The notes beneath the pieces were generated by a model, which made no database searches, had not been told where the DNA came from, and saw only the letters and a list, made by a program, of their open reading frames with translations. DNA of 32,000 bases from Vibrio vulnificus CMCP6. Lineage in GTDB: Bacteria; Pseudomonadota; Gammaproteobacteria; Enterobacterales; Vibrionaceae. Each line of letters begins with the position of its first letter. The first letter of the stretch is position 1. Made by a program: the position numbers and the translations under genes. The stretch spans positions 720,001 through 752,000 of the forward strand of contig NC_004460.2 in assembly GCF_000039765.1 (NCBI RefSeq), given 5' to 3'. Shown here one piece after another: positions 2,672 through 26,641 of the stretch.

Positions 2672-3121
2672 TTATTTGAAGTTTGGAGAAAAATAAACGG
2701 CTTGAACTTTTTGGATGTATATTCTTCGGGCGCTCTCGGTGCGTTTAGAAAATCCTGCATTATACGCACCGACACTGTTCCAGTTATAACCATGACTAGC
2801 AAAGTTAGACGCTAATACCCAAGCACCAAGCGATACATTAAAACACGGCTCGTAAACATTGGACTCATCGACATTAAATTCAGCAAGTTTAGGAAACCAA
2901 GACGAATTAATTTGCATCAATCCATAATCACGACTTATTATTTCACCATTTTGATTTTTGTTTTCGTTGTAAGCGTTGGATCTAAGACTGCTTTCTACTT
3001 GCGCAATAGCTCTAAGTAAATCAGGTGATACGTTATAATGCTGTCCGGCCTCTTCAAAACAAAAGGCCGAAACCGCACTAGGAAAAATAAGCAATAGTAA
3101 GCATGTTTTTTTCATAAGCAA
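2672..3121 (-). CDS. Lytic transglycosylase (SLT domain; F orf169/geneX, R1 P19-like), secreted
   Basis: There is a signal peptide 'MKKTCLLLLIFPSAVSA'. The catalytic-Glu motif 'AIAQVESSL', 'GLMQIN' and 'AYNAG' are typical of plasmid-borne SLT-family enzymes. The gene sits next to oriT and points toward it, as in F. Confidence 0.85.
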   Translation of the reverse strand: MLMKKTCLLLLIFPSAVSAFCFEEAGQHYNVSPDLLRAIAQVESSLRSNAYNENKNQNGEIISRDYGLMQINSSWFPKLAEFNVDESNVYEPCFNVSLGAWVLASNFASHGYNWNSVGAYNAGFSKRTESARRIYIQKVQAVYFSPNFK

Positions 3122-3167
3122 AAAATGGAGTCCGTCAGGACTCTATTCTATCGTATATTTTAAGAGA

Positions 3168-3509
3168 TTAATATTCACTAGGCAGCAAAACCGTGGTAAC
3201 ACTTCTATCTCTTTCTGTAATGACCCAAATACGCTCACCACATAACTTATATTTAGATAAAACACGTTCACCTGTTTTGGTAGCTTCATCGTTCGTTATT
3301 TTATCATCAATACAGATAGAGCCCCAGTCACCATTTTTATGGCGAGTAAGTGCAATAAACAAACTACCCTGTGAACCACTGTTATTTTCTATTATATCAG
3401 CTACACCTTGTGTCATTACCGTTTTTCCAAGCTCAAACGGAACAGCCGTACACACATAATTTTGCGCTTTTAAATCTTTTTGATTTAGAGTATTCTTTAA
3501 TGCGTTCAT
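3168..3509 (-). CDS. Small conserved plasmid/ICE-borne hypothetical protein (113 aa)
   Basis: The ORF is in the same orientation as its neighbours. The C-terminal 'GDWG...IWVITERDRSVTTVLLPSEY' pattern is one I recall from plasmid-related hypothetical proteins. No function is assignable. Confidence 0.5.
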   Translation of the reverse strand: MNALKNTLNQKDLKAQNYVCTAVPFELGKTVMTQGVADIIENNSGSQGSLFIALTRHKNGDWGSICIDDKITNDEATKTGERVLSKYKLCGERIWVITERDRSVTTVLLPSEY

Positions 3510-3601
3510 TTTTAAGTTTCCTATAGTTTATAATTGAACATGCCTTAGCGAATTTTTGCTGAGCGTTAAGGATTTTTATTTCTGGTTTATTCGTAGTACG
3601 T

Positions 3602-3967
3602 TCACCACTGTCTATACACTTGATAAATGTCGTCGTATGAATAACCATACTCTTCGAGATTTTCTACACAGTCGGTAATATCATTGGTATAAAAACACTC
3701 GTGATTAGAGAGTTCACGACGAATAATTGTCTCCTTGCCATTTTCGGCAATGTCTTGCTTAATCCCTTCTTTTTGAATTTCATCTAAACGCTCAATCAAT
3801 TTTTTAGCGTTATTCTTAGGCACAATCATTCCCATGCCGAGAGAGACATACTCAACGCCTTTTTTCTTAGCTGAATCGAACTGATTATTAGAAAACGCGA
3901 AGAACGCGCCTAGCTCATCAAATAAATCGGTTTGTGGTTGTTGGGTGTAATCTGATAGATATTTCAT
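3602..3967 (-). CDS. Hypothetical protein (121 aa), leading-region gene
   Basis: The start lies 3 nt after the stop of the upstream gene, suggesting operon coupling. 'LGAFFAFSNNQFDSAKKKG' resembles a conserved plasmid-borne DUF family. No function is assignable. Confidence 0.5.
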   Translation of the reverse strand: MKYLSDYTQQPQTDLFDELGAFFAFSNNQFDSAKKKGVEYVSLGMGMIVPKNNAKKLIERLDEIQKEGIKQDIAENGKETIIRRELSNHECFYTNDITDCVENLEEYGYSYDDIYQVYRQW

Positions 3968-3970
3968 AGC

Positions 3971-4351
3971 TTAAGCCTCAACATTAAAATTAATGGTGGT
4001 ATCTATTAATGTGGCGGAAAGTGCTTTTGCAATTGCGCCACACTCTTGTTTAATTGCAGATATTGAAAGCTGTGAGGATAGAAAGTTCTTAACGTGTTTC
4101 TCATTACCATTTGACTCAATAGCCATGACTTGAAAGCCCGCCTCCCACTGCTCACGCGGCGTATCCCATGAACCAAAGTGCTCCCCACGAACGACCACAC
4201 TGACCACCTTTGATGGGTCAAGATAAGCCGGTAACTGCTGAAGAAAATGACAAGAGATATCATTTTTTGGTGAGCTTTCGTGCCCAGCGGCGAAACGCTG
4301 GTCGCTGACCTTCGATTTAGAGAGAGTTGGGGTTGAGTGTCGTTGTGCCAT
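3971..4351 (-). CDS. Hypothetical protein (126 aa), first gene of the minus-strand cluster
   Basis: The ORF has AGAAGGAAA about 9 nt upstream of its ATG. It lies immediately downstream (minus strand) of the GC-rich structured region. The overlapping 4006..4413 ORF is an alternative frame. Confidence 0.45.
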   Translation of the reverse strand: MAQRHSTPTLSKSKVSDQRFAAGHESSPKNDISCHFLQQLPAYLDPSKVVSVVVRGEHFGSWDTPREQWEAGFQVMAIESNGNEKHVKNFLSSQLSISAIKQECGAIAKALSATLIDTTINFNVEA

Positions 4352-5546: not shown

Positions 5547-6026
5547 CTAAGTATTGGTTCGATGTGGCTGTGGACTGGCTAAACATATCTGCCTCGATTG
5601 GTCCCCTGATGCCGAGTGTTTTAACTTTGCTACCAACCTATCAGGTGCGCAATATTTACACAGAGTCACCCTCGATTCTTACTCGATATCGAAATATGAG
5701 ACCAGTTTTTGGATATGGAGTAGATGCGCCAGATTAATCAACTGCCGCCCACAATGACCTATTTTATTAGCATGATCCCGATGAACGATTCTCGTAAGAT
5801 CTTGAGTGAGCGTAATGAAGTTTGGCGTGCCTCCACGCATTGAAAATGGTCGGAAGTTCTTAAAAAAAACAATATTGAGCAAGAAATGTACAAATTAAGT
5901 ATTAAGTATCGAAAACTATGGTAGGCTAGTTCGTGAACCCCCACAGCTTAGTGGGACATTTTGTTGATTCTGGATTGACTATCCTCCCCATCGTGCCCTT
6001 CTAAGCCTAACGAAGTTAGGTAAATC

Positions 6027-7211
6027 ATGTTACACCCAACACGTAAAATGAGCTCAAAACTGAGCAACGTAGAAAACTTGTACTCTTTACCAAGAAGTAG
6101 AGCGTTACCTAAACCCAATTTATTGAGGCAACAAAGGGAGACTGCGGTTGTCTACTGCGAGGGCTTCTTTGGTGAGTCTAAAGGTAAAACAACTAACGGG
6201 CTAGTACGTGAGTCGAATCGGTTCAAGATCGTATCTGTTATCGACAGTACCAAAGCAGGCCAAGATAGTGGAGCTTATCTCTATGGGCATGACAATGGCG
6301 TTCCTATTTGTTCTAGTTTAAGTCAAGCGATCGCGGTTTCTGATTGGATTCCGGAATACTTTATTTACGGCCTTTCTCCTGAGAGTGGGCGTTTATCTCT
6401 TGAAGAAAGACAGCTAATCCTCACCGCAATGAGATTGGGGATGAACATTGTGATTGGCCTACATGAATTTTTAACGGACGACCCAGAGTTTATGGAAGCG
6501 GCCAAAAAGAATCATGTTCGGATTATTGATGTTATCAAACCAAGGCCAATAGATGAACTTCAGCTGTTTGCGAACCGTCTCCAAACAGTTCTTTGCCCAA
6601 GGATTTTAGTCATGGGTACGGATTGTGCTATTGGCAAACGTACCACTGCATTGGCGTTGACGAAAGTCCTCGAAAGATACGGTTTAAATGTCGTCATGAT
6701 CGCCACAGGGCAAACGGGGTTGATCCAAGGAGCACGCTATGGGATCGCACTTGAAGCCATACCTTCACAGTATTGCGTTGGAGAGTTAGAAGCCATTGTT
6801 GTTGAAGCATACGAAGAAGAAGGACCTGATGTCATTGTGATTGAAGGGCAAGGTGCATTAAGCCACCCCTGTTTTTGTACTAGTGCATCGATTATCCGTG
6901 GCTCGCAACCACATGCTGTAATCCTTCAACACTCTCCAACGAGAGTCTACTTGAGTGGTAGTGAGCAATATTTTATGCCTGATTTGGATACAGAAATAGA
7001 GCTAATAGAGCTGTTTGCAGGTGTACCCGTTATAGGCATTACATTAAACAGTCAAGGTTTGGATGAGCAATCTACCGCGGAAGTGATTTCTCACTATGTC
7101 GACAAGTATCATCGTCCAGTGGCAGAACTGTTTACTGTTTCAGATGAAGTTCTAGTTGAAATGGTGATGGACATGTTCCCAGAGTTAGATCTTGATTCTA
7201 TCACTATCTAG
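6027..7211 (+). CDS. DUF1611 domain protein (DgcN-like N-acetyltransferase family), paralog A
   Basis: 'VVYCEGFFGESKGKTTNGLVR', 'VMGTDCAIGKRTTA' and 'IVIEGQGALSHP' are hallmark blocks of DUF1611. It is a paralog of 13016..14221. Confidence 0.8.
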   Translation: MLHPTRKMSSKLSNVENLYSLPRSRALPKPNLLRQQRETAVVYCEGFFGESKGKTTNGLVRESNRFKIVSVIDSTKAGQDSGAYLYGHDNGVPICSSLSQAIAVSDWIPEYFIYGLSPESGRLSLEERQLILTAMRLGMNIVIGLHEFLTDDPEFMEAAKKNHVRIIDVIKPRPIDELQLFANRLQTVLCPRILVMGTDCAIGKRTTALALTKVLERYGLNVVMIATGQTGLIQGARYGIALEAIPSQYCVGELEAIVVEAYEEEGPDVIVIEGQGALSHPCFCTSASIIRGSQPHAVILQHSPTRVYLSGSEQYFMPDLDTEIELIELFAGVPVIGITLNSQGLDEQSTAEVISHYVDKYHRPVAELFTVSDEVLVEMVMDMFPELDLDSITI

Positions 7212-11936: not shown

Positions 11937-13019
11937 TCATAAGCCTTTTCTTAGGCAACGATGGTTAAACACTTTATGCACTGAACTTGAAGACATCGCG
12001 GATAAAAATGCACTGTAATCGAGTTTAAATGGCACTTTATTTCCAACAATTAGAGACTCTTCGGCTGTTTCAATGATCAGATGATCGCTACTCGATGACA
12101 CAATACTCATGTCGTCAGGTGGGTGCAGCCCCTGAACACAAACATCTTGACGGCCTAGGGCAAGAATCGCCTGTGCAACGGATCCTCGGTCTTGGAGTGC
12201 TTCCTTCTCACCAAATGCATTTACGCCTCGATTACCCCAGGGCAGAGATGGTTTAATTTTGGCTTCGATCACTTCAGCAGTTAATGTGACCGCATCTGTG
12301 TGGAGACCTCCGAGCGGTTGTTGCTCATTAGGCACACAACCGAGAAAAATGGCTTCCCCTAGTCGCAAGTTGTTGATGCGAGTTCTCCCTTGATGAGCCA
12401 GAACCCAATTGATGGAAGAGGAGTTGCCTCCGGAAATAATCTCAAGGTTGATACCAAATACGGCTTCGATACCATCAGCGAGATCAGACAGAAGTCTCAT
12501 TTTTTTGTCATCCGGTGTGATGCCGTAGCGACAGGTAAGATTCGCCCCAATGCCTTTTATGATTATATTAGGTAAAGATATGATTTCACTAATAAAACCA
12601 ATGAGACGACTTGGCATCACTCCTTCTCTTAAATCCCCAAGCTCAACCATGATTATCACGCCGTGTTTGGAATTCACTTGTTTTGCAACGCGGGAGAGTT
12701 GCTGAATAACTTGGATTTCAGTGTTCAAACTGATATCACAATACTCTACAACCTTCGCTGTTTGGCTCAGCATTGGGGTACGAATGAGCATTTTGGGTAC
12801 CGTAATCCCAGAATGGACCATTCTTTGGATATTTTCGATTCTGGAGTCTGCTAGTGTACTTGCACCAGCATCAATGAGAAGCTGAGCAATGATGGGATGG
12901 CCTAAACAGGATTTTGTCACAGGTGTGACTGACACATTTTTTAAAGCCAGTCGTTCAATGAGATACTGAGTATTATGATGAATTTTAAAACAATCGAGAT
13001 CTAGCTTTGGGTACCTCAC
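11937..13019 (-). CDS. Alanine/ornithine racemase-family PLP-dependent enzyme (COG3457-like)
   Basis: The N-terminal barrel pattern with 'VTPVTKSC' gives a PLP-lysine candidate. Overall size and layout are YhfX/Orr-like. The GTG start overlaps the stop of the upstream DUF1611 gene (GTGA). Confidence 0.65.
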   Translation of the reverse strand: MRYPKLDLDCFKIHHNTQYLIERLALKNVSVTPVTKSCLGHPIIAQLLIDAGASTLADSRIENIQRMVHSGITVPKMLIRTPMLSQTAKVVEYCDISLNTEIQVIQQLSRVAKQVNSKHGVIIMVELGDLREGVMPSRLIGFISEIISLPNIIIKGIGANLTCRYGITPDDKKMRLLSDLADGIEAVFGINLEIISGGNSSSINWVLAHQGRTRINNLRLGEAIFLGCVPNEQQPLGGLHTDAVTLTAEVIEAKIKPSLPWGNRGVNAFGEKEALQDRGSVAQAILALGRQDVCVQGLHPPDDMSIVSSSSDHLIIETAEESLIVGNKVPFKLDYSAFLSAMSSSSVHKVFNHRCLRKGL

Positions 13020-14221
13020 CTTAGTTCTGCTCTAGTATTTTCTAGCAAAGGATAGGCTGAGAAGATCATTTGTAACAGATGTTCTTTAGGTTGAGACAAT
13101 GGGTCTGTCACCGGTAGGCCCAACTCAGCAGAATAAGCACTGATTGCTGATAGTATTTCATCGGAAGACAACCCTTCGTGATTCAGTGTTAATCCTATCA
13201 CAGTGGTGTCTGAGAAGGCCTGAATAAGATTGATTTCATAGGCTACTGACGGGATTGGCAGTTCTGGGAAATCAACGCGATACGCCCGTTTCGGGGCGTG
13301 CTGCAAAATAACAGCCGTTGGACAGCAGCCTCGTAATATATGAGAGCTGGTAGAAAAGGCTTGGTGACTCAATGCCCCTTGGCCTTCGATGATGATGATA
13401 TCGGGGTTTTCATTCTCATAGGCCTTCACAATGACCGCTTCCAACTCACCAGCACAGAAAAAAGAAGAGACGGCGTCTAGCGCAACACCGTAGGGAGCGC
13501 CTTGCATAATGCCAGTCTGCCCCGTTGCTATCATAACGACATTCAGCCCTTTGTTTCTTAACTCGTTGGTTAAAATAGTCGCAGTTGTTCTTTTTCCTAA
13601 AGCGCAGTCTGTCCCCATTACCGCAATTCTAGGGCATTTGACTTGGTGTATTTTTCCACTAAATGATTGCATATTTTCGTTGTTCTTGGGTTTGCGAACA
13701 TCAACGATATGGACGTTGTATTTGAGACTGGCTTCAATAAAAACAGGGTCTTCGGTTAGAAATTCATGTAATCCAATAATGATGTTTATATGACAAGACA
13801 TAGCTTTTAGAAGGATGTCTCTTTCGGTGTCAGAAAGTAAGCCATTTGATGGTGCAATTCCAAAAATAAAGTAGCTAGGAGCGATGTCTGTGTGACGCAG
13901 GGCTTCTTCTAGGTCTGAAAAGATGGGAATGGTGTTTTTTTTACCGTCAAGTATTTCTCCAGAGTTAGAGCCTGAAAGTTCACTATCAATCACCGACAAA
14001 ATTCGATAATTGGGAGAGTGTCTTACCAAACCGTTCGCTGTTTTTCCGTCGGTTTTACCAAAGTTACCTTCACAGTAAATAATTGCAGTGGGCGTCGTCG
14101 GATTAACTTTATGACAAAGAGGCGTCCAAGGTTCCGGACGAGTTGGGCTATGGTCGTTTTTTATATGTTCGGTTCTAGTTAATTGAAAGATGTTTCTTAA
14201 CTTTCTAGTTGAAATTGACAT
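13016..14221 (-). CDS. DUF1611 domain protein (DgcN-like), paralog B
   Basis: 'IIYCEGNFGKTDGKTANGLVR', 'VMGTDCALGKRTTA' and 'IIIEGQGALSH' are present. Roughly half of the aligned residues are identical to paralog A, judged by eye. Confidence 0.8.
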   Translation of the reverse strand: MSISTRKLRNIFQLTRTEHIKNDHSPTRPEPWTPLCHKVNPTTPTAIIYCEGNFGKTDGKTANGLVRHSPNYRILSVIDSELSGSNSGEILDGKKNTIPIFSDLEEALRHTDIAPSYFIFGIAPSNGLLSDTERDILLKAMSCHINIIIGLHEFLTEDPVFIEASLKYNVHIVDVRKPKNNENMQSFSGKIHQVKCPRIAVMGTDCALGKRTTATILTNELRNKGLNVVMIATGQTGIMQGAPYGVALDAVSSFFCAGELEAVIVKAYENENPDIIIIEGQGALSHQAFSTSSHILRGCCPTAVILQHAPKRAYRVDFPELPIPSVAYEINLIQAFSDTTVIGLTLNHEGLSSDEILSAISAYSAELGLPVTDPLSQPKEHLLQMIFSAYPLLENTRAELR

Positions 14222-14280
14222 AATTAAAGCCTGCAGTAAGGCTTAGGGGGCTACTAAGGAGTGCCGAGATGTGAGTTCGG

Positions 14281-14312
14281 AAAAGAAAAGAAGTCCCTAC
14301 TAAGCGGTAGGG
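14281..14312 (-). terminator. Rho-independent terminator candidate (minus strand)
   Basis: On the minus strand the stem is CCCTAC-CGCTTA-GTAGGG, followed by ACTTCTTTTCTTTT. It lies downstream of the EEP pseudogene and upstream of DUF1611-B. Confidence 0.55.
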
Positions 14313-14351
14313 TAAGCAACCATGCTAACACACTTCCAAGACTTTTGTTGG

Positions 14352-14734
14352 TTAATCAATAAAATGACTATTTGATTTTGGAAAAGCAAAATCGATATTT
14401 TCATCTGCATTTGAGATGTTGCCTGAGGCCAAGCGGAAATCGAGGCCTTTTTGAATCGCAAAAGCCAAGTTCATGTCATCTGTGCTTTCATCGTCGATGA
14501 TGATGTTGCATTGATCAGGTGGGAAAAGCGCTCTAAAGCGTAGCGATCCCTGACCTCTTGAAGGGCAATAATGTCTGCATTGAGTCTAGGGACCGTTTCT
14601 TGATAGTTGATGACCCTAACTTTGTTCATGTAGGCCGATAAAAACTTCGAGTTGTAAGTGGCCAATCGAAGGTGATCTGATGAGTAAGTGGAAAAAGAAA
14701 AAACAAGGAGTGAGAGTGCAATAAATATTTTCAA
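14352..14734 (-). pseudogene. Endonuclease/exonuclease/phosphatase (EEP) family gene remnant
   Basis: A signal peptide plus 'LRLATYNSKFL...ADIIALQEV' is a typical EEP N-terminus. The frame then breaks, and only a short C-terminal piece (…DDMNLAFAIQKG…) follows in another frame. Most of the domain is missing. Confidence 0.65.
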
Positions 14735-15214
14735 GGAAACAATCCGTGCGGCTAATGTTTTGTCATTTATACATTTACAGGGTGGATTTAACTTGACTTA
14801 ATATGTGCGAATGGGCTGTGAACTGAAACTTATGTCGCTGATAATCATATAAATATCAAATTGCTGCGACGAGCTACAAAGTACAATTATACAACGTAAG
14901 CATTTGTTTTTATGTGTAAATGAATATTTCTTGCATTTACTGTCAATGTTAATTAGCGCTTTATTTCCGAGAAAATTAAATATAGTGTTCTTTGAACGTT
15001 ATTTTTTGTGAACGAAAAACTAGGTAGAACAAACTACCCCTGTTCTACTTGAAAAGAAGTGCCAGCTATAGTCATCTTTTAACCTTGTCGATGTGCTTCT
15101 TCTTTTCTTATTTTATCTGATTCCATTTCATTTATTTTAAAAATAGAAATATCACCAAAGTGGGACGTTTTTGGGCTAAATGTCTACTGTTGATTATTTT
15201 TTGTACGAACCAAC

Positions 15215-15244
15215 TTGCACTGAAGTTTGAAAACTCGGTATAAC
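15215..15244 (+). promoter_or_regulatory. Sigma-70 promoter candidate for the small-ORF/MFS/HExxH operon
   Basis: TTGCAC (15215-15220), an 18-nt spacer, then TATAAC (15239-15244). It lies about 70 nt upstream of the small ORF. A hairpin ACAATC-GAAA-GATTGT lies in the putative leader. Confidence 0.3.
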
Positions 15245-15316
15245 GATATTGCAGCTAACAATTACTTAACAATCGAAAGATTGTAATCCAATCAACGTAG
15301 AAAGAGGAAAGACATC

Positions 15317-15394
15317 ATGAAAAAGCTAGATAAATCAAAACTTTTTTCTGTAAAAAAGAAAGGTTCTCCTGTTCTTAAAGTGGTAGAGAACTAA
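15317..15394 (+). CDS. 25-aa Lys-rich small ORF MKKLDKSKLFSVKKKGSPVLKVVEN (candidate RiPP precursor or regulatory leader peptide); absent from the ORF track
   Basis: ATG 15317 is preceded by AAGAGGAAAG with 7-nt spacing. The TAA stop is at 15392-15394. It sits 26 nt upstream of the MFS gene in the same orientation. Confidence 0.5.
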   Translation: MKKLDKSKLFSVKKKGSPVLKVVEN

Positions 15395-15420
15395 TCGAAA
15401 GAAGTTTTGGAGGTTATTTG

Positions 15421-16659
15421 ATGAACTACTACTTGTATATTTTTTCTCACTTAGCCTCCATCGTTGCTTTTCGAAGTACGACGATTATCGTGATATGGGC
15501 TTTAGTGCAGTCATTTGGCCAAGCAGAAAGTGTTGGACTTTTAGTGGCCATTATGTGGATTGCTAATATTCTATTTTTGCCGGTTTCAGGTTATTTCCTA
15601 GACATCTACTCAAAGAAAACCATCATACTGATTTCGAGCATCGGCTCTGCGGTGGCGGCAACGCTACTGTTGTCCTTCAATAGCTCCTTGCTCATTTGTA
15701 TCTTACTCGTTTCAATACTCTCCATATTCAATAGTGCAATCTCAGCAGCCCCTAATGCCGTAATCCCCCTTTTAGTGAGTCAAGACAGGTTAACAAAGGC
15801 CATTGGTTTGGCTGCAACGTTGAACTCTTTGCAAGTGATAATAGGTGTCATTATTGGTGGTGGGGTCATTTATGCGATTGGTATAGAAGTATCTTTGTTT
15901 GTCACAACAGCACTCTATTTACTGTCTCTCGTCCTAATTTTATCGGTGCGTCTTCCTAGTGTTTCGCCTGAGCAGGGAGAGGTTTCTGGGAAAAGAGTTT
16001 CCCAGCTTACTCAAGGTTTTCGAAGTTTAAGCACATTAAAACCTGAAGTGATGTTTTGTTTTTCAGCGATGGTCGGCAATTTCATTCTAACCCCACTAAT
16101 TTCAATTGTTATACCAATCTATGTCCAACAGAGTCTCAATAACAACATTGGTTATGTTGTGCTGTTTGAGTCTGCGATCGCAGTTGGAATGATAGCTGGA
16201 GGGACGATGGCGATGAGAGCGGCTTCGTTTATGAACCGATATCACCAAGTTCTTTTAGGTGGACTTTTAATTGGTGTCGGGGTAGTGGCTTTCGCTGCAT
16301 TTGAACACACATACATAAAAGCGTTTGCACTCTTCAGCTCAGGGATGGGACTCACCATCAAAGGTATTCCTTTTAGCTCACTTAGAGGTCATGCCGTACC
16401 TGCAAACTATAAGGCTAGGATAGAATCTGCGATCTTTACGCTTTGTATCTTGAGCATACCATTAGGCAGTTTTACGTTTAGCTACCTCATTGATAACACA
16501 CAACTGGATATTAATAGTCTGGTGATGTTTATGGGCGTTCTTATTGTCTTATCACTCACTTTTATTGTGTTTTCAAAAGAGAGTGTGGCGGTTTTAAAAA
16601 CAAAAGACGAAGAATTGGTCCACTACTACACAACTCATTACCCACAGGCCTTCAAATAA
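15421..16659 (+). CDS. MFS transporter (EntS/MFS_3-like exporter type)
   Basis: There are about 12 predicted TM segments throughout. GGAGG (15409-15413) lies 7 nt upstream of ATG 15421, whereas the track starts at TTG 15418. Confidence 0.8.
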   Translation: MNYYLYIFSHLASIVAFRSTTIIVIWALVQSFGQAESVGLLVAIMWIANILFLPVSGYFLDIYSKKTIILISSIGSAVAATLLLSFNSSLLICILLVSILSIFNSAISAAPNAVIPLLVSQDRLTKAIGLAATLNSLQVIIGVIIGGGVIYAIGIEVSLFVTTALYLLSLVLILSVRLPSVSPEQGEVSGKRVSQLTQGFRSLSTLKPEVMFCFSAMVGNFILTPLISIVIPIYVQQSLNNNIGYVVLFESAIAVGMIAGGTMAMRAASFMNRYHQVLLGGLLIGVGVVAFAAFEHTYIKAFALFSSGMGLTIKGIPFSSLRGHAVPANYKARIESAIFTLCILSIPLGSFTFSYLIDNTQLDINSLVMFMGVLIVLSLTFIVFSKESVAVLKTKDEELVHYYTTHYPQAFK

Positions 16660-17685
16660 ATGGAAATAACAACTGCAAATTGGGCAAAGCCAAGTGCCGA
16701 GAGAGCGGATTGGATCATTAAATGCAATCTAGAAGAATTAGCAGAGAGTTTAATTTATATACATGGCTTCTTTGACGTTAAAGAAAGCGATCTCAAAGAG
16801 GTCTTAGGTCGAAAACAAGTGTCGTTTCGTCAAAATATGCCACAAGCTTTTTTATATCATGAATACATGATCAGAAATATTGAGAGTGAGCATTGGAAGC
16901 CTGAACTTCTTTTTACACACTTGCTGTCGGAATTGAGTCCGGTCAATGAAAACAAGATAGAGATTGTTTTGTATGGGCATAGATATCATCAGTTTACGAA
17001 TGAGGTTTTAGAAAACTTAATCGCTGATGATCACTTGGAGTGCTATGGCGAGCATCTTAAGAAACGTAATCAAGGGATCACTGTTCCTAGCGAATCTCAG
17101 TTTCGCTACACACGGGCTGAAGTGGAAAAGTGTTTAAACTACATCGAATGTTCCTGTCCTGAGCTATATGACGAAATAAAAACGGTCGTCTCTCAAATAC
17201 ACATCATGAGTTCTCCTTGTGTTAATGCTGGTAGTTATCTCAGTATGCTGGGCATGTTCAATATTCGCTATCTTGATAAATCCTCTGAACACTGGAGCCG
17301 TTTGGCAGAACATATTATCCACGAATCCGCGCACAACCTATTGTATCAACTTTGGCATCATGACCCGATTATTACAGACGACGATGGTCTTTTTTACACA
17401 CCTTTTAGGAAAGATGAGCGACCGATTAGTGGGGTGTTCCACGCGATGTTTGTCTTGGCAAGGACCATTTACGGTTTCAACCAATTACTAAAAAATCCAG
17501 ACGTTCATCTTGAGACACATCAGATCAGCAGCCACTATAATGAAGCCAATAACGAACTGCCATTCACCGACAAGTTTTATCAGACGGTTGAAGTCTTAGA
17601 GAAATCAGGAAAACTTACGGAATTCGGCAACAGAATTGTGAAAGATTGCGTCGTTTTGGTAGAAGAGTGCAAATATAAAGTTTAG
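16660..17685 (+). CDS. HExxH-motif domain protein (TIGR04267-like putative peptide-modifying enzyme)
   Basis: 'LAEHIIHESAHNLLYQLW' (HExxH) is followed by 'YTPFRKDERPISGVFHAMFVLARTIY'. This matches my recollection of the HEXXH-motif peptide-modification family. The ATG directly follows the MFS stop (TAAATG). Confidence 0.65.
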   Translation: MEITTANWAKPSAERADWIIKCNLEELAESLIYIHGFFDVKESDLKEVLGRKQVSFRQNMPQAFLYHEYMIRNIESEHWKPELLFTHLLSELSPVNENKIEIVLYGHRYHQFTNEVLENLIADDHLECYGEHLKKRNQGITVPSESQFRYTRAEVEKCLNYIECSCPELYDEIKTVVSQIHIMSSPCVNAGSYLSMLGMFNIRYLDKSSEHWSRLAEHIIHESAHNLLYQLWHHDPIITDDDGLFYTPFRKDERPISGVFHAMFVLARTIYGFNQLLKNPDVHLETHQISSHYNEANNELPFTDKFYQTVEVLEKSGKLTEFGNRIVKDCVVLVEECKYKV

Positions 17686-18163
17686 TGTCAGTCGGCGAGC
17701 AAAGACAGAACCATCTCATCTGGGCTCCTTTGTCGATTCATTGGTCGTCAACAGTAATGTTTATCTGCTCATACTTTGCTCAAAATTATAAGCAGTTATA
17801 AGATCTCGACAGTCTTTTGAACAATACTGGGAACCTCGATCTCGGTGAACGATAATCTACTCCAAGAATCCACGACGAAACAAAGCCATTGATAGTGCAT
17901 CAAAGATCAGTGTAGCGGTCATTCGGAGCCTCTGCGTTAAAATTCTGAGCCAGCGCAGCATGTTCGGAGCAACAGGCATTTTATGTTTGCTTGTCCGTTG
18001 TACACTTAAACTTGCGTGCCGCTTTCGGCGTTAAATCCTGGCGCTTCATGCTAGCTGCAATGGTTTTAACATTATAGCTGTCACCGTGTTCCGCCAGTTC
18101 TTTTTGGATACGCCTTGAGTCGTAAGGACGTTTGCTATTGTCAAAAGCCTCTTTCACCGTCAT
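17686..18163 (-). mobile_element. IS3-family element remnant (degraded orfB with internal deletions), terminus at 17686
   Basis: 'RPYDSRRIQKELAEHGDSYNVKTIAASMKRQDL' is a typical IS3 OrfB N-terminus. Downstream fragments ('NFNAEAPNDR', 'DALSMALFRRG', 'GSQYCSKDCRDLITAYNFEQSMSR') lie in shifting frames. The + strand begins TGTCAG..., that is, a ...CTGACA-3' IS3-type end. Confidence 0.7.
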
Positions 18164-18643
18164 ATTAAGTTCTTGGCGAATTATTAACTTTTTCTAAAGC
18201 CAATCTTGCTCTCTCCTTATAAGCAACTCAAGCCATATCGACAAGCTATGTGATTTTTGTATGTGTTTCAGGGATGAACCACGGAAATAATCAGTCTCGC
18301 AACTCTGCATCGTGTCATTAGTTCTGATATACCAAACTAATATTAAGTGTGTAAATGTTTATTTACTCAAACAAGAAAAGGGTCAAAAGTTATTTAGAGT
18401 AATAACCTGAATTTAGAAAATTCGGATAACTTTCAGTATCGAAAGTCACTTCGTGAGGTGTCCAACACTGCTGGTGCGGTTTAGTGCCGAGAAAACTCAA
18501 AATCTCATAACTCCTTACACGTCATGTATGAACGCCATAATATTCATACAACCAAATTTAAAAGGTTCATCCCAACAATGCGACACTTACGATCATAACG
18601 CTAAAGGTTCATCATATAACGCATAGATGTCTTCGCCATTGTA

Positions 18644-18820
18644 TTAGCTTTTGAACGGTTTCATAAGTGCCATCCTCCCAAGCGTTGTATTGCCATTCAA
18701 AAATTGATGTACTCATTTTTCAATCGTTGGAGATTTCACTTTAAACTGCTCAGCAGCTTGAATGATCGGCATGCCTTGGTCTAGTAAAGTGTTGGGCGAT
18801 TGCAAGCCGTGAAACTGTTC
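18644..18820 (-). pseudogene. Transposase helix-turn-helix fragment
   Basis: The minus-strand translation 'LLDQGMPIIQAAEQFKVKSPTIEKWVHQFLNGNT' is a typical transposase HTH (IS630/IS3 OrfA type). There is no intact ORF. Confidence 0.45.
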
Positions 18821-18882
18821 AAGACAAGACAACCAAGTTGCATATAAGTTGTACTATTTACGTTACTCCACAGAACCAATAT

Positions 18883-19872
18883 CTACTTAAAGTAATTCGT
18901 TTTGCTAATTCCCAGAGTTTTCATTTTTGAGCGAAGAGTATTCGGATTAATTGCCAGCAGTTGTGCCGCCCCAAATGGCCCTTCAACTCGGCCATGACAA
19001 TGAACTAACGCTTTAGTAATGTGCAGCTTTAACGCTTCATTTAAAGTCAGAAAAACTCCATTTGTACGTATTGGCTCTCTTACCTGATTAGCAACCTTAC
19101 CATTATTGTCTATAGATGCCTGAGGAAGAACGAGCGATTCTTCAATCGCCAAAAATGCACCTTGACCCAGTATTGCCGCTCTTTCAATGATGACCTGAAG
19201 TTCCCGCACGTTACCTGGCCACTCGTATTTTTTCAGGTAACTAATTTGTGACTCTGTGGGTAAGGCCAAGGGAAGTCCTAGTTTATTGGATGCTTTCTGG
19301 GCAAAGTACTCTGCTAAATCAGCAATGTCTTCTATTCTGTCTCGCAACGCTGGTAAACGAATAGGAAAAACATTAATTCGAAACCAAAGATCTTCACGAA
19401 AGATACCGCCTTTAACAGATTCTTCTAGATTTCGATGAGTTGCGGCAACGATACGGGCATTCACATTGATCTCTTGTTCTCCACCAACACGCGTTAGAGT
19501 CCCTTCTTGAAGCACCCTAAGTAAACGAACCTGTGCCGCTAGGCTCAATTCTCCAATTTCGTCTAAAAAAAGGGTTCCACCGTTAGCTCTTTCAAACCAA
19601 CCTTTTTTTTTCGATGAGGCCCCAGTAAAGCTTCCTTTTTCATGACCAAAAAGCTCTGAATCAATCAGCTCCGACGGAATAGCACCACAGTTTACACGAA
19701 TGAAGCTATTGTTAGCTCTTGAGGAGTGTTGATGAATATAACGCGCTATGAGTTCCTTTCCCGAGCCTGTTTCGCCAAGAATTAATGCAGTTGAGTCAGT
19801 TTGTGCGACCAATCCAACTTCACGTATCGCACGTTTTAAGCCTTTGTTGTATCCAATAATCATGGTGAGCAT
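18883..19872 (-). CDS. Sigma-54-dependent transcriptional activator (bEBP) with AAA+ and Fis-type HTH domains only; no N-terminal sensor/receiver domain
   Basis: Walker A 'GETGSGKE', the sigma-54 contact loop 'GSFTGA' (GAFTGA variant), 'FLDEIGEL', 'RVIAATHRNL' and the C-terminal HTH 'GAAQLLAINPNTLRSKMKTLGI' are present. The AAA+ domain starts at about residue 5. Confidence 0.85.
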   Translation of the reverse strand: MLTMIIGYNKGLKRAIREVGLVAQTDSTALILGETGSGKELIARYIHQHSSRANNSFIRVNCGAIPSELIDSELFGHEKGSFTGASSKKKGWFERANGGTLFLDEIGELSLAAQVRLLRVLQEGTLTRVGGEQEINVNARIVAATHRNLEESVKGGIFREDLWFRINVFPIRLPALRDRIEDIADLAEYFAQKASNKLGLPLALPTESQISYLKKYEWPGNVRELQVIIERAAILGQGAFLAIEESLVLPQASIDNNGKVANQVREPIRTNGVFLTLNEALKLHITKALVHCHGRVEGPFGAAQLLAINPNTLRSKMKTLGISKTNYFK

Positions 19873-25846: not shown

Positions 25847-26641
25847 GTGATAAATGGAGAGCTACTAGCAGCTTACAAGAGAGGGAATGTCATTTTATTC
25901 GTTGGGGCTGGTGTATCAATGAACCTTGGTCTTCCTTCATGGTCTGAACTTATCAACCATATTTCCGAAGAGTTAGGCTATGATCCTGATATTTATAAAA
26001 CATTTGGAGATGATCTTGCGCTAGTCGAATATTATCGAATCCAAAAAGGCAGAATCGGTCCCCTGCGTAGCTGGATGGACACCGAATGGAACTCTGCAAA
26101 TGTGGCACTGGAAGCATCCAAGATTCATGAATATATTGCCAAAGCAAATTTCCCTCTTATCTATACGACAAACTACGACAGATGGATAGAGGCGTCGCTA
26201 AAACATTACGGTAAAGAGTTTATAAAAATAGCGTCTGTATCGGACATGATTGAGGTGAAAAAAGACCAGACACAAGTCATTAAGTTTCATGGAGACTTTG
26301 ATGACGATGAATCAATAGTTCTTGATGAATCGAGTTACTTCGAACGACTAGAGTTCGAATCACCTTTAGACCTCAAACTTAGGGCTGATGTGCTCGGAAA
26401 AACGGTTCTTTTCATTGGTTACAGTTTATCTGATATCAACATAAGACTTTTATTCTATAAACTATCGAAGCTATGGAAAGGTAACTACTGTGGAGGAGCT
26501 CAGCCTAAGTCCTACGTCTTCTCTCCACGTCCAAATCCTGTTCAGGAAGCAGTGCTTGAACAATGGGGAATCAATATGATTAATTCAGAAATTGATGATC
26601 CTGGTAAAGCACTTGAAGAGTTTTTGAAACAGTTTGTGTAA
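25847..26641 (+). CDS. Stand-alone SIR2-family protein (SIR2_2, ThsA-N-terminal-like NADase fold), 264 aa, apparently intact
   Basis: '[22 protein letters not shown]' (Rossmann GAGxS), 'TTNYDRWIE', 'IKFHGD' and '[13 protein letters not shown]' parallel the motif series of Thoeris ThsA SIR2 domains. The GTG start has AAAGGGA upstream. Confidence 0.75.

Follow-up and report, generated by a model that had tools for sequence, protein, structure and literature searches.

We analysed a 32,000-nucleotide (nt) stretch of the Vibrio vulnificus CMCP6 genome (contig NC_004460.2, positions 720,001 to 752,000; hereafter the window, in whose coordinates its features are given). Three co-oriented genes at 15317-17685 probably constitute one operon for a peptide made on ribosomes and altered after translation (a RiPP), in which an oxygenase would modify a 25-residue peptide and a major facilitator superfamily (MFS) transporter would export it. 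Such a pathway would be built on a stand-alone alpha-ketoglutarate-dependent HExxH (aKG-HExxH) oxygenase and on a previously undescribed, rule-bound precursor family, with the window holding its minimal three-gene form. What the data show is how the genes are built, that the peptide is under selection, that peptide and enzyme occur together, and to which family and fold the enzyme belongs. An earlier note, made from the letters of the stretch, had proposed a cassette of precursor, modifier and exporter around an enzyme of this kind, and the family matches, gene neighbourhoods and codon pattern described below support that proposal.

A 25-codon gene under purifying selection heads the cassette

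The cassette consists of the precursor peptide gene (15317-15394, 25 codons, MKKLDKSKLFSVKKKGSPVLKVVEN), the gene for a 412-residue MFS transporter (15421-16659) and the gene for a 341-residue protein of the aKG-HExxH type (16660-17685), all on the + strand. The open reading frame (ORF) list and the sequence agree with the earlier note that the three ORFs are intact, oriented alike and tightly packed. The Shine-Dalgarno sequence it had described before the small ORF can be read as GAGG at 15304-15307, 9 nt upstream of the ATG; a second one, GGAGG at 15409-15413, lies 7 nt upstream of the MFS ATG within the spacer between the two genes, and occurs also in the related loci L001 and L002. The spacer from the peptide stop codon to the MFS ATG (15421) is 26 nt long and the ATG of the HExxH gene (16660) immediately follows the MFS stop codon (TAA ATG), both as had been reported; a TTG at 15418 is a possible alternative start of the MFS gene. 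The peptide ends in VVEN and contains one Asp, one Glu and, as the note had it, no Cys; its Lys count is 8 of 25 and not the 9 given there.

Comparison with L001 (Vibrio sp. 10N.261.46.E11) and L002 established the 25-codon ORF as a real gene under purifying selection. DNA similarity to both loci runs from 15315, 2 nt upstream of the peptide ATG, to 17684, so that the conserved unit is exactly the three ORFs. Identity is highest for the peptide (92% to L001 and 88% to L002), followed by the MFS protein (74-75%) and the HExxH enzyme (63-64%). Between the window and L001, 16 of the 26 codons of the peptide gene differ, 14 of them synonymously and 2 non-synonymously. This synonymous-rich pattern points to selection on the peptide sequence and implies that the ORF is translated, as the earlier note had supposed. 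Peptide genes of other genera bear Shine-Dalgarno sequences of their own (AAGG or AAGGAG, 6-10 nt upstream). The peptide is matched by neither Pfam nor NCBIfam, and gene callers skip the small ORF in other V. vulnificus assemblies. In L001 the HExxH gene (6001-7026) contains an in-frame stop that divides it into ORFs 6001-6480 and 6505-7026, and the peptide and MFS genes are intact; this HExxH gene may be a recently inactivated copy.

The MFS protein matches MFS_1 and, in a hidden Markov model scan of families, is weakly similar to EntS, Mef and ryptide-exporter models. We presume that it serves as an exporter or an immunity pump for the peptide product. Its orthologs adjoin the cluster in L001-L006, L019-L023 and L026-L029.

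The enzyme is a member of the aKG-HExxH peptide oxygenase family

Profile and fold comparisons identified the 341-residue protein as a true member of the aKG-HExxH peptide oxygenase family (TIGR04267 / IPR026337). It scored 61.5 bits against NCBIfam TIGR04267 ('aKG-HExxH-type peptide beta-hydroxylase'; cutoff 40), residues 160-328 covering model positions 6-175 of 177, which is the match to a peptide-modification model that the earlier note had expected; a Pfam scan of the same protein returned no match. A profile of 14 homologs aligned to the sequence of the ChlH crystal structure (PDB 8s5f) with an E-value of 2.3e-9, and the alignment spanned both signature elements that the note had pointed out. 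The metal-binding motif HESAH (H221-E222-x-x-H225) is encoded at 17320-17334 (+) and is invariant in the 14 aligned homologs. The block P-F-R-K-D-E-R-P-I-S-G-V-F-H (P248-H261, followed by A262) is encoded at 17401-17442 (+) and aligned to the corresponding P-x-R-x-D-x-R-P-x-x-G-x-x-H-A block of ChlH. Residues invariant in the 14-homolog alignment are H221, E222, H225, P248, R250, R254, P255 and H261.

The predicted structure extends this assignment to the full length of the protein. An AlphaFold2 model (pLDDT 88.5, pTM 0.89) matched the 8s5f chains in Foldseek with TM-scores of 0.64-0.69 and an E-value of 3.5e-11 over about 370 alignment columns, at a sequence identity of 18-20%. SjiH was the sole other confident match; zincin aminopeptidases and the next matches outside the family had E-values above 0.1. 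Judged by this model, the zincin-like fold of the ChlBH HExxH domain takes up the entire protein, and neither family scans nor structure comparison revealed an extra domain.

Proteins of the aKG-HExxH family are Fe/alpha-ketoglutarate oxygenases that act on RiPP precursors and hydroxylate His, Asp, Phe, Gln or Pro (PMC12636437, PMC13060819, PMC12707348). Two members, PflC and PosC, oxidatively cleave the conserved C-terminal tail of their substrate, the N-terminal part of which places the C-terminal part at the iron (PMC12636437). The family by itself does not define a RiPP class (PMC12636437, PMC13060819, PMC12707348).

The precursors obey a 21-residue rule

Loci were collected from a scan of species-representative genomes, from exact-protein look-ups and from plasmid records, and a peptide profile was run against their six-frame translations. 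The resulting core family contains 25 peptides, namely 23 that were tabulated (20 distinct tails), a peptide of V. brasiliensis and a distant member of 61 residues. The motif [LIV]-D-x-x-K-[LIV]-F is present in all 23 tabulated peptides and, counted from its Asp to the Asn that precedes the stop codon, each of them measures exactly 21 residues. This spacing and the terminal Asn hold throughout the 25 core peptides: the V. brasiliensis peptide keeps the spacing and has Met in place of the motif Lys, and in the 61-residue member D-x-x-K-L, spacing and terminal Asn are all retained, with Gln in place of Phe. The N-terminal extension before the motif is 3-16 residues long in the tabulated peptides and reaches about 39 across all 25. 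Residues between the motif and the invariant Asn vary, with Pro18 mostly conserved, so that the family combines a conserved N-terminal motif with a more variable C-terminal part.

The window peptide carries the motif as L4-D5-x-x-K8-L9-F10 and ends in N25, with 21 residues from D5 to N25; it is essentially Met plus the bare conserved unit. The strict precursor pattern occurs once in the six frames of the whole window. A richness in Lys, which the earlier note had taken as a mark of the precursor, is displaced as the defining feature by the fixed-length D-x-x-K-[LIV]-F ... N-COOH unit that emerges from the peptide table. A database search with the peptide alignment as query (first row 48 residues) recovered 13 called copies, all ending in Asn, none of them named and none of the 25-residue Vibrio form.

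Several further observations concern sequence variation among the peptides. Asn-Gly motifs (LNGKNGK, LNGNG) occur in the peptides of L008 (2997-3146), L009 (3718-3876) and L031 (4762-4947), which are of the Pseudomonas/Citrobacter type plus one metagenomic locus. Diverged peptides in L024, L025 and L033 retain the N-terminal motif and have another C-terminus that lacks the terminal Asn. On a Pantoea agglomerans conjugative plasmid (L024, 5488-5559) and on a plasmid of Xenorhabdus sp. TH1 (L025, about 5730-5819), these are unannotated small ORFs (MKKVESSKLLKIKSPLSGWSFSK and ...KKFDTQKIIGLKNKSTCLTVMTIGTK, respectively) placed before a distantly related pair of HExxH and MFS genes.

The cassette is the minimal form of a widespread cluster type

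About 30 loci of gamma-, beta- and alphaproteobacteria have a related peptide next to an enzyme of this clade, and wherever the upstream sequence of a locus is intact the peptide family is present there. The clade, defined by full-length stand-alone relatives at E ≤ 1e-30 with representatives clustered at 50% identity, comprises 125 representatives within a superfamily of about 2,700. A co-oriented peptide gene heads the cluster in Vibrio vulnificus, V. europaeus, V. profundum, V. diabolicus, V. brasiliensis and one further Vibrio; in an Endozoicomonadaceae metagenome-assembled genome (MAG), Fastidiosibacter, Paraburkholderia, five Xenorhabdus species, Citrobacter youngae and Pseudomonas helleri; and in two alphaproteobacterial (Xanthobacteraceae) MAGs and several metagenomic contigs, some of them Photobacterium-like. 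The conserved small ORF with an MFS or other transporter alongside, for which the earlier note had proposed to look in homolog neighbourhoods, is indeed there. The contigs of L003 and L007 end upstream, and the peptide region falls outside the data; in L016 and L018, which belong to a much more distant enzyme clade, neither the profile nor a loose pattern found a peptide of the family type.

Although the gene next to the peptide varies among MFS, methyltransferase and HExxH genes, the HExxH enzyme is the constant partner. The constant set is the peptide, the HExxH enzyme and usually a transporter of the MFS or EamA type, no adjacent transporter being detected in the alphaproteobacterial clusters L014 and L015. 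Most clades add an FkbM-family methyltransferase (PF05050), and many clusters add a ClpP paralog (PF00574; NF009205, 244 bits) with intact Ser, His and Asp motifs. Clusters of the Pseudomonas/Citrobacter type hold an extra FmdA/AmdA-like amidase and an EamA-type transporter in place of the MFS; those of the Xenorhabdus type hold an extra GNAT. Accessory genes of these kinds are typical of the tailoring, processing and export of RiPPs. Neither the window cassette nor any of the roughly 30 clusters related to it yielded genes of the radical S-adenosylmethionine (SAM), MNIO, YcaO or ThiF-like types, and the neighbouring window genes likewise include none of the radical SAM type, in keeping with the absence of such a partner remarked on before.

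Only the peptide, MFS and HExxH genes are present in the window, in L001 and L002 and in other V. vulnificus strains. A tblastn search of the window for remnants of methyltransferase, ClpP, amidase, EamA and GNAT genes found none; the minimal form thus shows no visible sign of being a full cluster in decay. The window cassette is a reduced, minimal form of a larger conserved cluster type that is widespread in proteobacteria. Of the earlier suggestion of a minimal, undescribed modified-peptide system, the minimal three-gene form and its undescribed state stand; the cassette is no isolated case, as relatives add an FkbM methyltransferase and often ClpP.

Two kinds of rearrangement were seen among the related clusters. 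In the Endozoicomonadaceae MAG (L005, 2593-4744) a Mutator-family insertion sequence (IS; transposase 2852-4060, - strand) splits the FkbM-type methyltransferase gene and parts the peptide gene from the remaining cluster. On the short contigs L029 (4895-5038) and L030 (1227-1370) the peptide gene comes after the HExxH gene and before a methyltransferase gene, which means either that clusters stand in tandem or that the assembly is circular or collapsed; in L029 a phage minor-tail gene lies upstream.

Proposed pathway and alternative explanations

As expected of a RiPP, an encoded putative precursor adjoins the enzyme proposed to modify it and is conserved together with it, across three proteobacterial classes and under purifying selection. 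In the pathway that we favour, the 25-residue product of 15317-15394 would be the substrate of the enzyme. The N-terminal motif, in the fuller form K-K-[LIV]-D-x-x-K-[LIV]-F-[SA]-[LIV], would dock on the Fe(II)/alpha-ketoglutarate HExxH oxygenase, and the fixed 21-residue distance from Asp5 to Asn25 would serve as a ruler, bringing one defined residue to the iron site. One residue would be oxidised, most likely by beta-hydroxylation (+16 Da), the candidates being three invariant residues (Asp5, Phe10, Asn25) and Pro18, which is conserved in most peptides; alternatively, the C-alpha at the C-terminus might be oxidised, as by PflC and PosC. The MFS protein would then export the cationic product or protect the producer. 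The FkbM family is known for O-methyltransferase chemistry, and for this reason the FkbM-family methyltransferase of the relatives plausibly O-methylates the new hydroxyl. That the peptide is the substrate, how and where it is oxidised, that the MFS exports it and any biological activity are all inferred from this arrangement of genes.

Several points weigh against this pathway. The window cassette holds neither a protease nor protease remnants, so that leader removal is not evident, and the 25-residue peptide has 3 residues before the motif, which leaves little room for a classical leader. Neither a promoter nor a terminator for the cassette was detected computationally, counts in the scan of 14400-18900 being at or below the shuffle expectation. 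The reactions of the aKG-HExxH family 'at present cannot be predicted' (PMC13060819). A ribosome-arrest peptide, moreover, would also keep its conserved residues at a set distance from the stop codon.

Because it shares this hallmark, the most serious alternative, albeit a very unlikely one, is that the small ORF encodes a regulatory leader or arrest peptide at whose end the ribosome stalls, as it does on TnaC, SecM and ErmCL, and so controls the downstream transporter and enzyme genes, the HExxH protein acting on some other substrate. Arrest peptides such as TnaC and SecM show a geometry of fixed distance to the end, and here the last codon, whose residue never varies, lies a constant 20, 17 and 15 residues after D, K and F, respectively. 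The small ORF is always first in the operon, and the MFS protein resembles Mef-like drug-efflux pumps, which are often preceded by leader peptides. However, RNA folding over the peptide ORF and MFS start (15290-15450) was no different from shuffles (z = -0.70) and Rfam at a permissive threshold gave zero matches in 14200-18900, so that neither an attenuator nor a riboswitch is supported. Clades differ in the spacer to the next gene, which measures anywhere from 26 nt up to roughly 120-140 nt, as well as in the identity of that gene; a conserved coupling device is absent, and a ribosome paused at the peptide stop would cover, rather than expose, the MFS Shine-Dalgarno sequence. The constant partner, in addition, belongs to a peptide-modifying family for which the clusters offer no other conserved candidate substrate ORF, and distant clades keep the N-terminal motif and change the C-terminus, the pattern of a recognition sequence with a variable core. 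We consider it just as improbable that the MFS exports the cationic peptide unmodified, in a bacteriocin-like or signalling role, and that the HExxH protein is a protease or immunity factor. The strong positive charge of the peptide would suit this role, HExxH is the classical motif of zincin proteases, and the enzyme could serve as the dedicated protease that the window otherwise lacks; hydrolytic cleavage by PflC has been seen when the leader is missing (PMC12636437). Yet the PxRxDxRPxxGxxH block is absent from zincin proteases, the confident structural neighbours are ChlBH and SjiH only, and the FkbM methyltransferase, amidase and GNAT of the relatives argue for chemical tailoring.

A further possibility, which we regard as very unlikely, is that the peptide is a scaffold from whose C-terminus a small fragment alone is put to use: the invariant Asn would be oxidised, methylated in the relatives and released, following the logic of peptide-scaffolded small-molecule pathways or of the Trojan-horse antibiotic microcin C. 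The ClpP of the relatives would be either the protease that frees the fragment or a target copy that is resistant. In the microcin C system the MccA heptapeptide ends in Asn and MccC is an MFS exporter, and a short Asn-ending peptide accompanied by MFS, methyltransferase-fold, GNAT and peptidase genes resembles that layout. The terminal Asn is invariant at a fixed distance from the docking motif and the intervening residues vary, which fits the use of a C-terminal fragment. Precedents exist for both elements: clpP copies encoded in clusters are established self-resistance markers (PMC13243586), and PflC and PosC perform oxidative chemistry at the C-terminus (PMC12636437). Against this, enzymes of scaffold chemistry, whether MccB/ThiF-like, PEARL or other, were found in no cluster, the window lacks ClpP, methyltransferase and any protease, and the data do not separate a C-terminal site from Asp5, Phe10 or Pro18. 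A bolder version of the RiPP pathway, which we put forward as doubtful, is that the stand-alone aKG-HExxH oxygenase and its ruler precursor ([LIV]-D-x-x-K-[LIV]-F, 14 residues, Asn-COOH) define a new RiPP class with chemistry at the terminal Asn unreported for RiPPs. If so, C-alpha oxidation might expel the Asn and leave a C-terminal amide, a bacterial Asn-based counterpart of peptidylglycine amidation; or a beta-hydroxylated terminal Asn might be a reactive warhead, with the ClpP paralog of the fuller clusters as a resistant target copy.

Upstream region, mobility and genomic surroundings

The 582-bp intergenic region upstream of the cassette (14735-15316, + strand), where promoter and regulatory elements presumably lie, has a G+C content of 31-34%, versus about 41-44% in the cassette genes, and so matches the AT-rich region of about 580 bp described earlier. 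The sigma-70-like promoter that had been placed in it was not recovered: the consensus scan of 14400-18900 found no promoter of sigma-70 type on the + strand upstream of the peptide gene, and region-wide it gave 9 promoter-like matches versus 11.2 expected from shuffles. Inspection by eye gave as best candidate the weak TTGCAC-N18-TATAAC at 15215-15244. Midway along the region, at 15024-15048, a hairpin with a 10-bp stem precedes a T-run on the - strand; the element is scored as a terminator for that strand, yet no - strand gene lies upstream of it.

The cassette is carried on a mobile unit. A 3.8-kb module (14355-18182) shares 97.6% identity with the V. vulnificus loci L026 and L027 in blastn, and the DNA differs beyond both of its ends. 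At the left edge lies the stump of an EEP (endonuclease/exonuclease/phosphatase) gene (14355-14734, - strand; 87-residue ORF at 14471-14734); since this gene encodes 393-428 residues in L026 and L027, the window copy is truncated. At the right end are fragments of an IS3-family transposase (HTH_21; 17857-18163, - strand), which are not pathway genes. The module ends at 18182, just past these fragments, which suggests IS-associated movement of the cassette, and the IS3 fragments are probably linked to its mobility. In L026 and L027 the cassette is flanked by a full-length EEP nuclease gene and by genes of the SSB, RecT, YqaJ and CbbQ types; L001 and L002 bear it in yet further contexts. The SSB, RecT, YqaJ, CbbQ-like AAA, DUF3150 and VWA genes beside the cassette in L026 (12249-21026) and L027 (8372-17361) resemble the core of integrative conjugative elements of the SXT/R391 type. 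Carriage of the cassette by phages found no match in 50,697 phage records or in IMG/VR.

Other genes of the window lie outside the module. Two DUF1611 paralogs and a gene with an alanine-racemase N-terminal domain occupy 6027-7211 (+), 11937-13019 (-) and 13016-14221 (-); one DUF1611 gene overlaps the co-oriented alanine-racemase-domain gene by 4 nt, and the group is unrelated to the cassette. A 329-residue, PspF-like sigma-54 activator (18883-19872, -) begins at its AAA+ domain and has no sensor domain; its position outside the 3.8-kb module makes it probably not a regulator of the cassette. With a DUF7146-containing protein (143-1744, +) and a SIR2_2-domain protein (25847-26641, +), the wider window looks like accessory or island-type DNA.

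Comparison with known systems

The aKG-HExxH oxygenases were recognised only in 2024, and each newly studied member has so far brought a new reaction: hydroxylation of Asp and His, of Gln or of Pro, and oxidative backbone cleavage. The cassette extends this emerging theme and is not a conceptual surprise. The enzyme clade of 125 representatives is nevertheless without a characterized member and the precursor without a name in any source; in the literature outside subscription-only papers, we found no account of such clusters, be it of HExxH together with ClpP or FkbM or of HExxH in Xenorhabdus or Vibrio. With one 25-residue substrate, one enzyme and one pump, the V. vulnificus cassette would be the smallest possible test system, and the fixed-length rule of the precursors leads to testable predictions on site choice by the enzyme. 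Precursor genes of 25 codons are systematically overlooked by gene callers. A strongly cationic product encoded on a mobile element in a pathogen of humans and fish could bear on competition or host interaction.

The closest structural relative is the beta-hydroxylase ChlBH/ChlH (PDB 8s5f; Morishita et al., Nat Chem 2024, as cited in PMC12636437), which shares with the window enzyme the family, the HExxH and PxRxDxRPxxGxxH motifs and the fold over about 340 residues, and which acts on a ribosomal precursor encoded next to it. Unlike ChlBH, the window enzyme stands alone, with no fused or adjacent radical SAM/SPASM protein; identity is low and the precursors are unrelated. PflC and PosC of the Pseudomonas pfl and pos clusters are aKG-HExxH enzymes that likewise stand alone, and their proteobacterial RiPP clusters hold transporters and lack a protease (PMC12636437). 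Those systems feature a long leader of the NHLP type, a Gln run and ARMD tail, an MNIO-nitroreductase fusion and a GNAT (PMC12636437), whereas the window precursor has 25 residues and ends in V-x-N, and neither the cassette nor its relatives hold an MNIO or nitroreductase gene.

PesO of the nitrilobacillins (PMC13060819) and BpmH/BipH of the biphenomycins (PMC12257519, PMC12707348) are aKG-HExxH enzymes that add one hydroxyl to a specific precursor residue, as we propose here; PesO modifies Pro, and the bip cluster holds an MFS transporter. These hydroxylations are accessory steps in clusters defined by MNIO, asparagine synthetase-like nitrile synthetase and B12-dependent radical SAM enzymes, whereas in the window the HExxH protein is the only modifying enzyme. 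With microcin C the system shares a very short unannotated precursor, an obligatory C-terminal Asn, an MFS exporter and a compact mobile operon and, in the relatives, genes of the methyltransferase-fold, GNAT and peptidase types. No MccB-type ThiF/E1-like adenylyltransferase is among the annotated cassette and cluster genes, a direct MccB query not having been used. The difference from microcin C lies in the modifying enzyme, which here is an oxygenase in place of such an adenylyltransferase.

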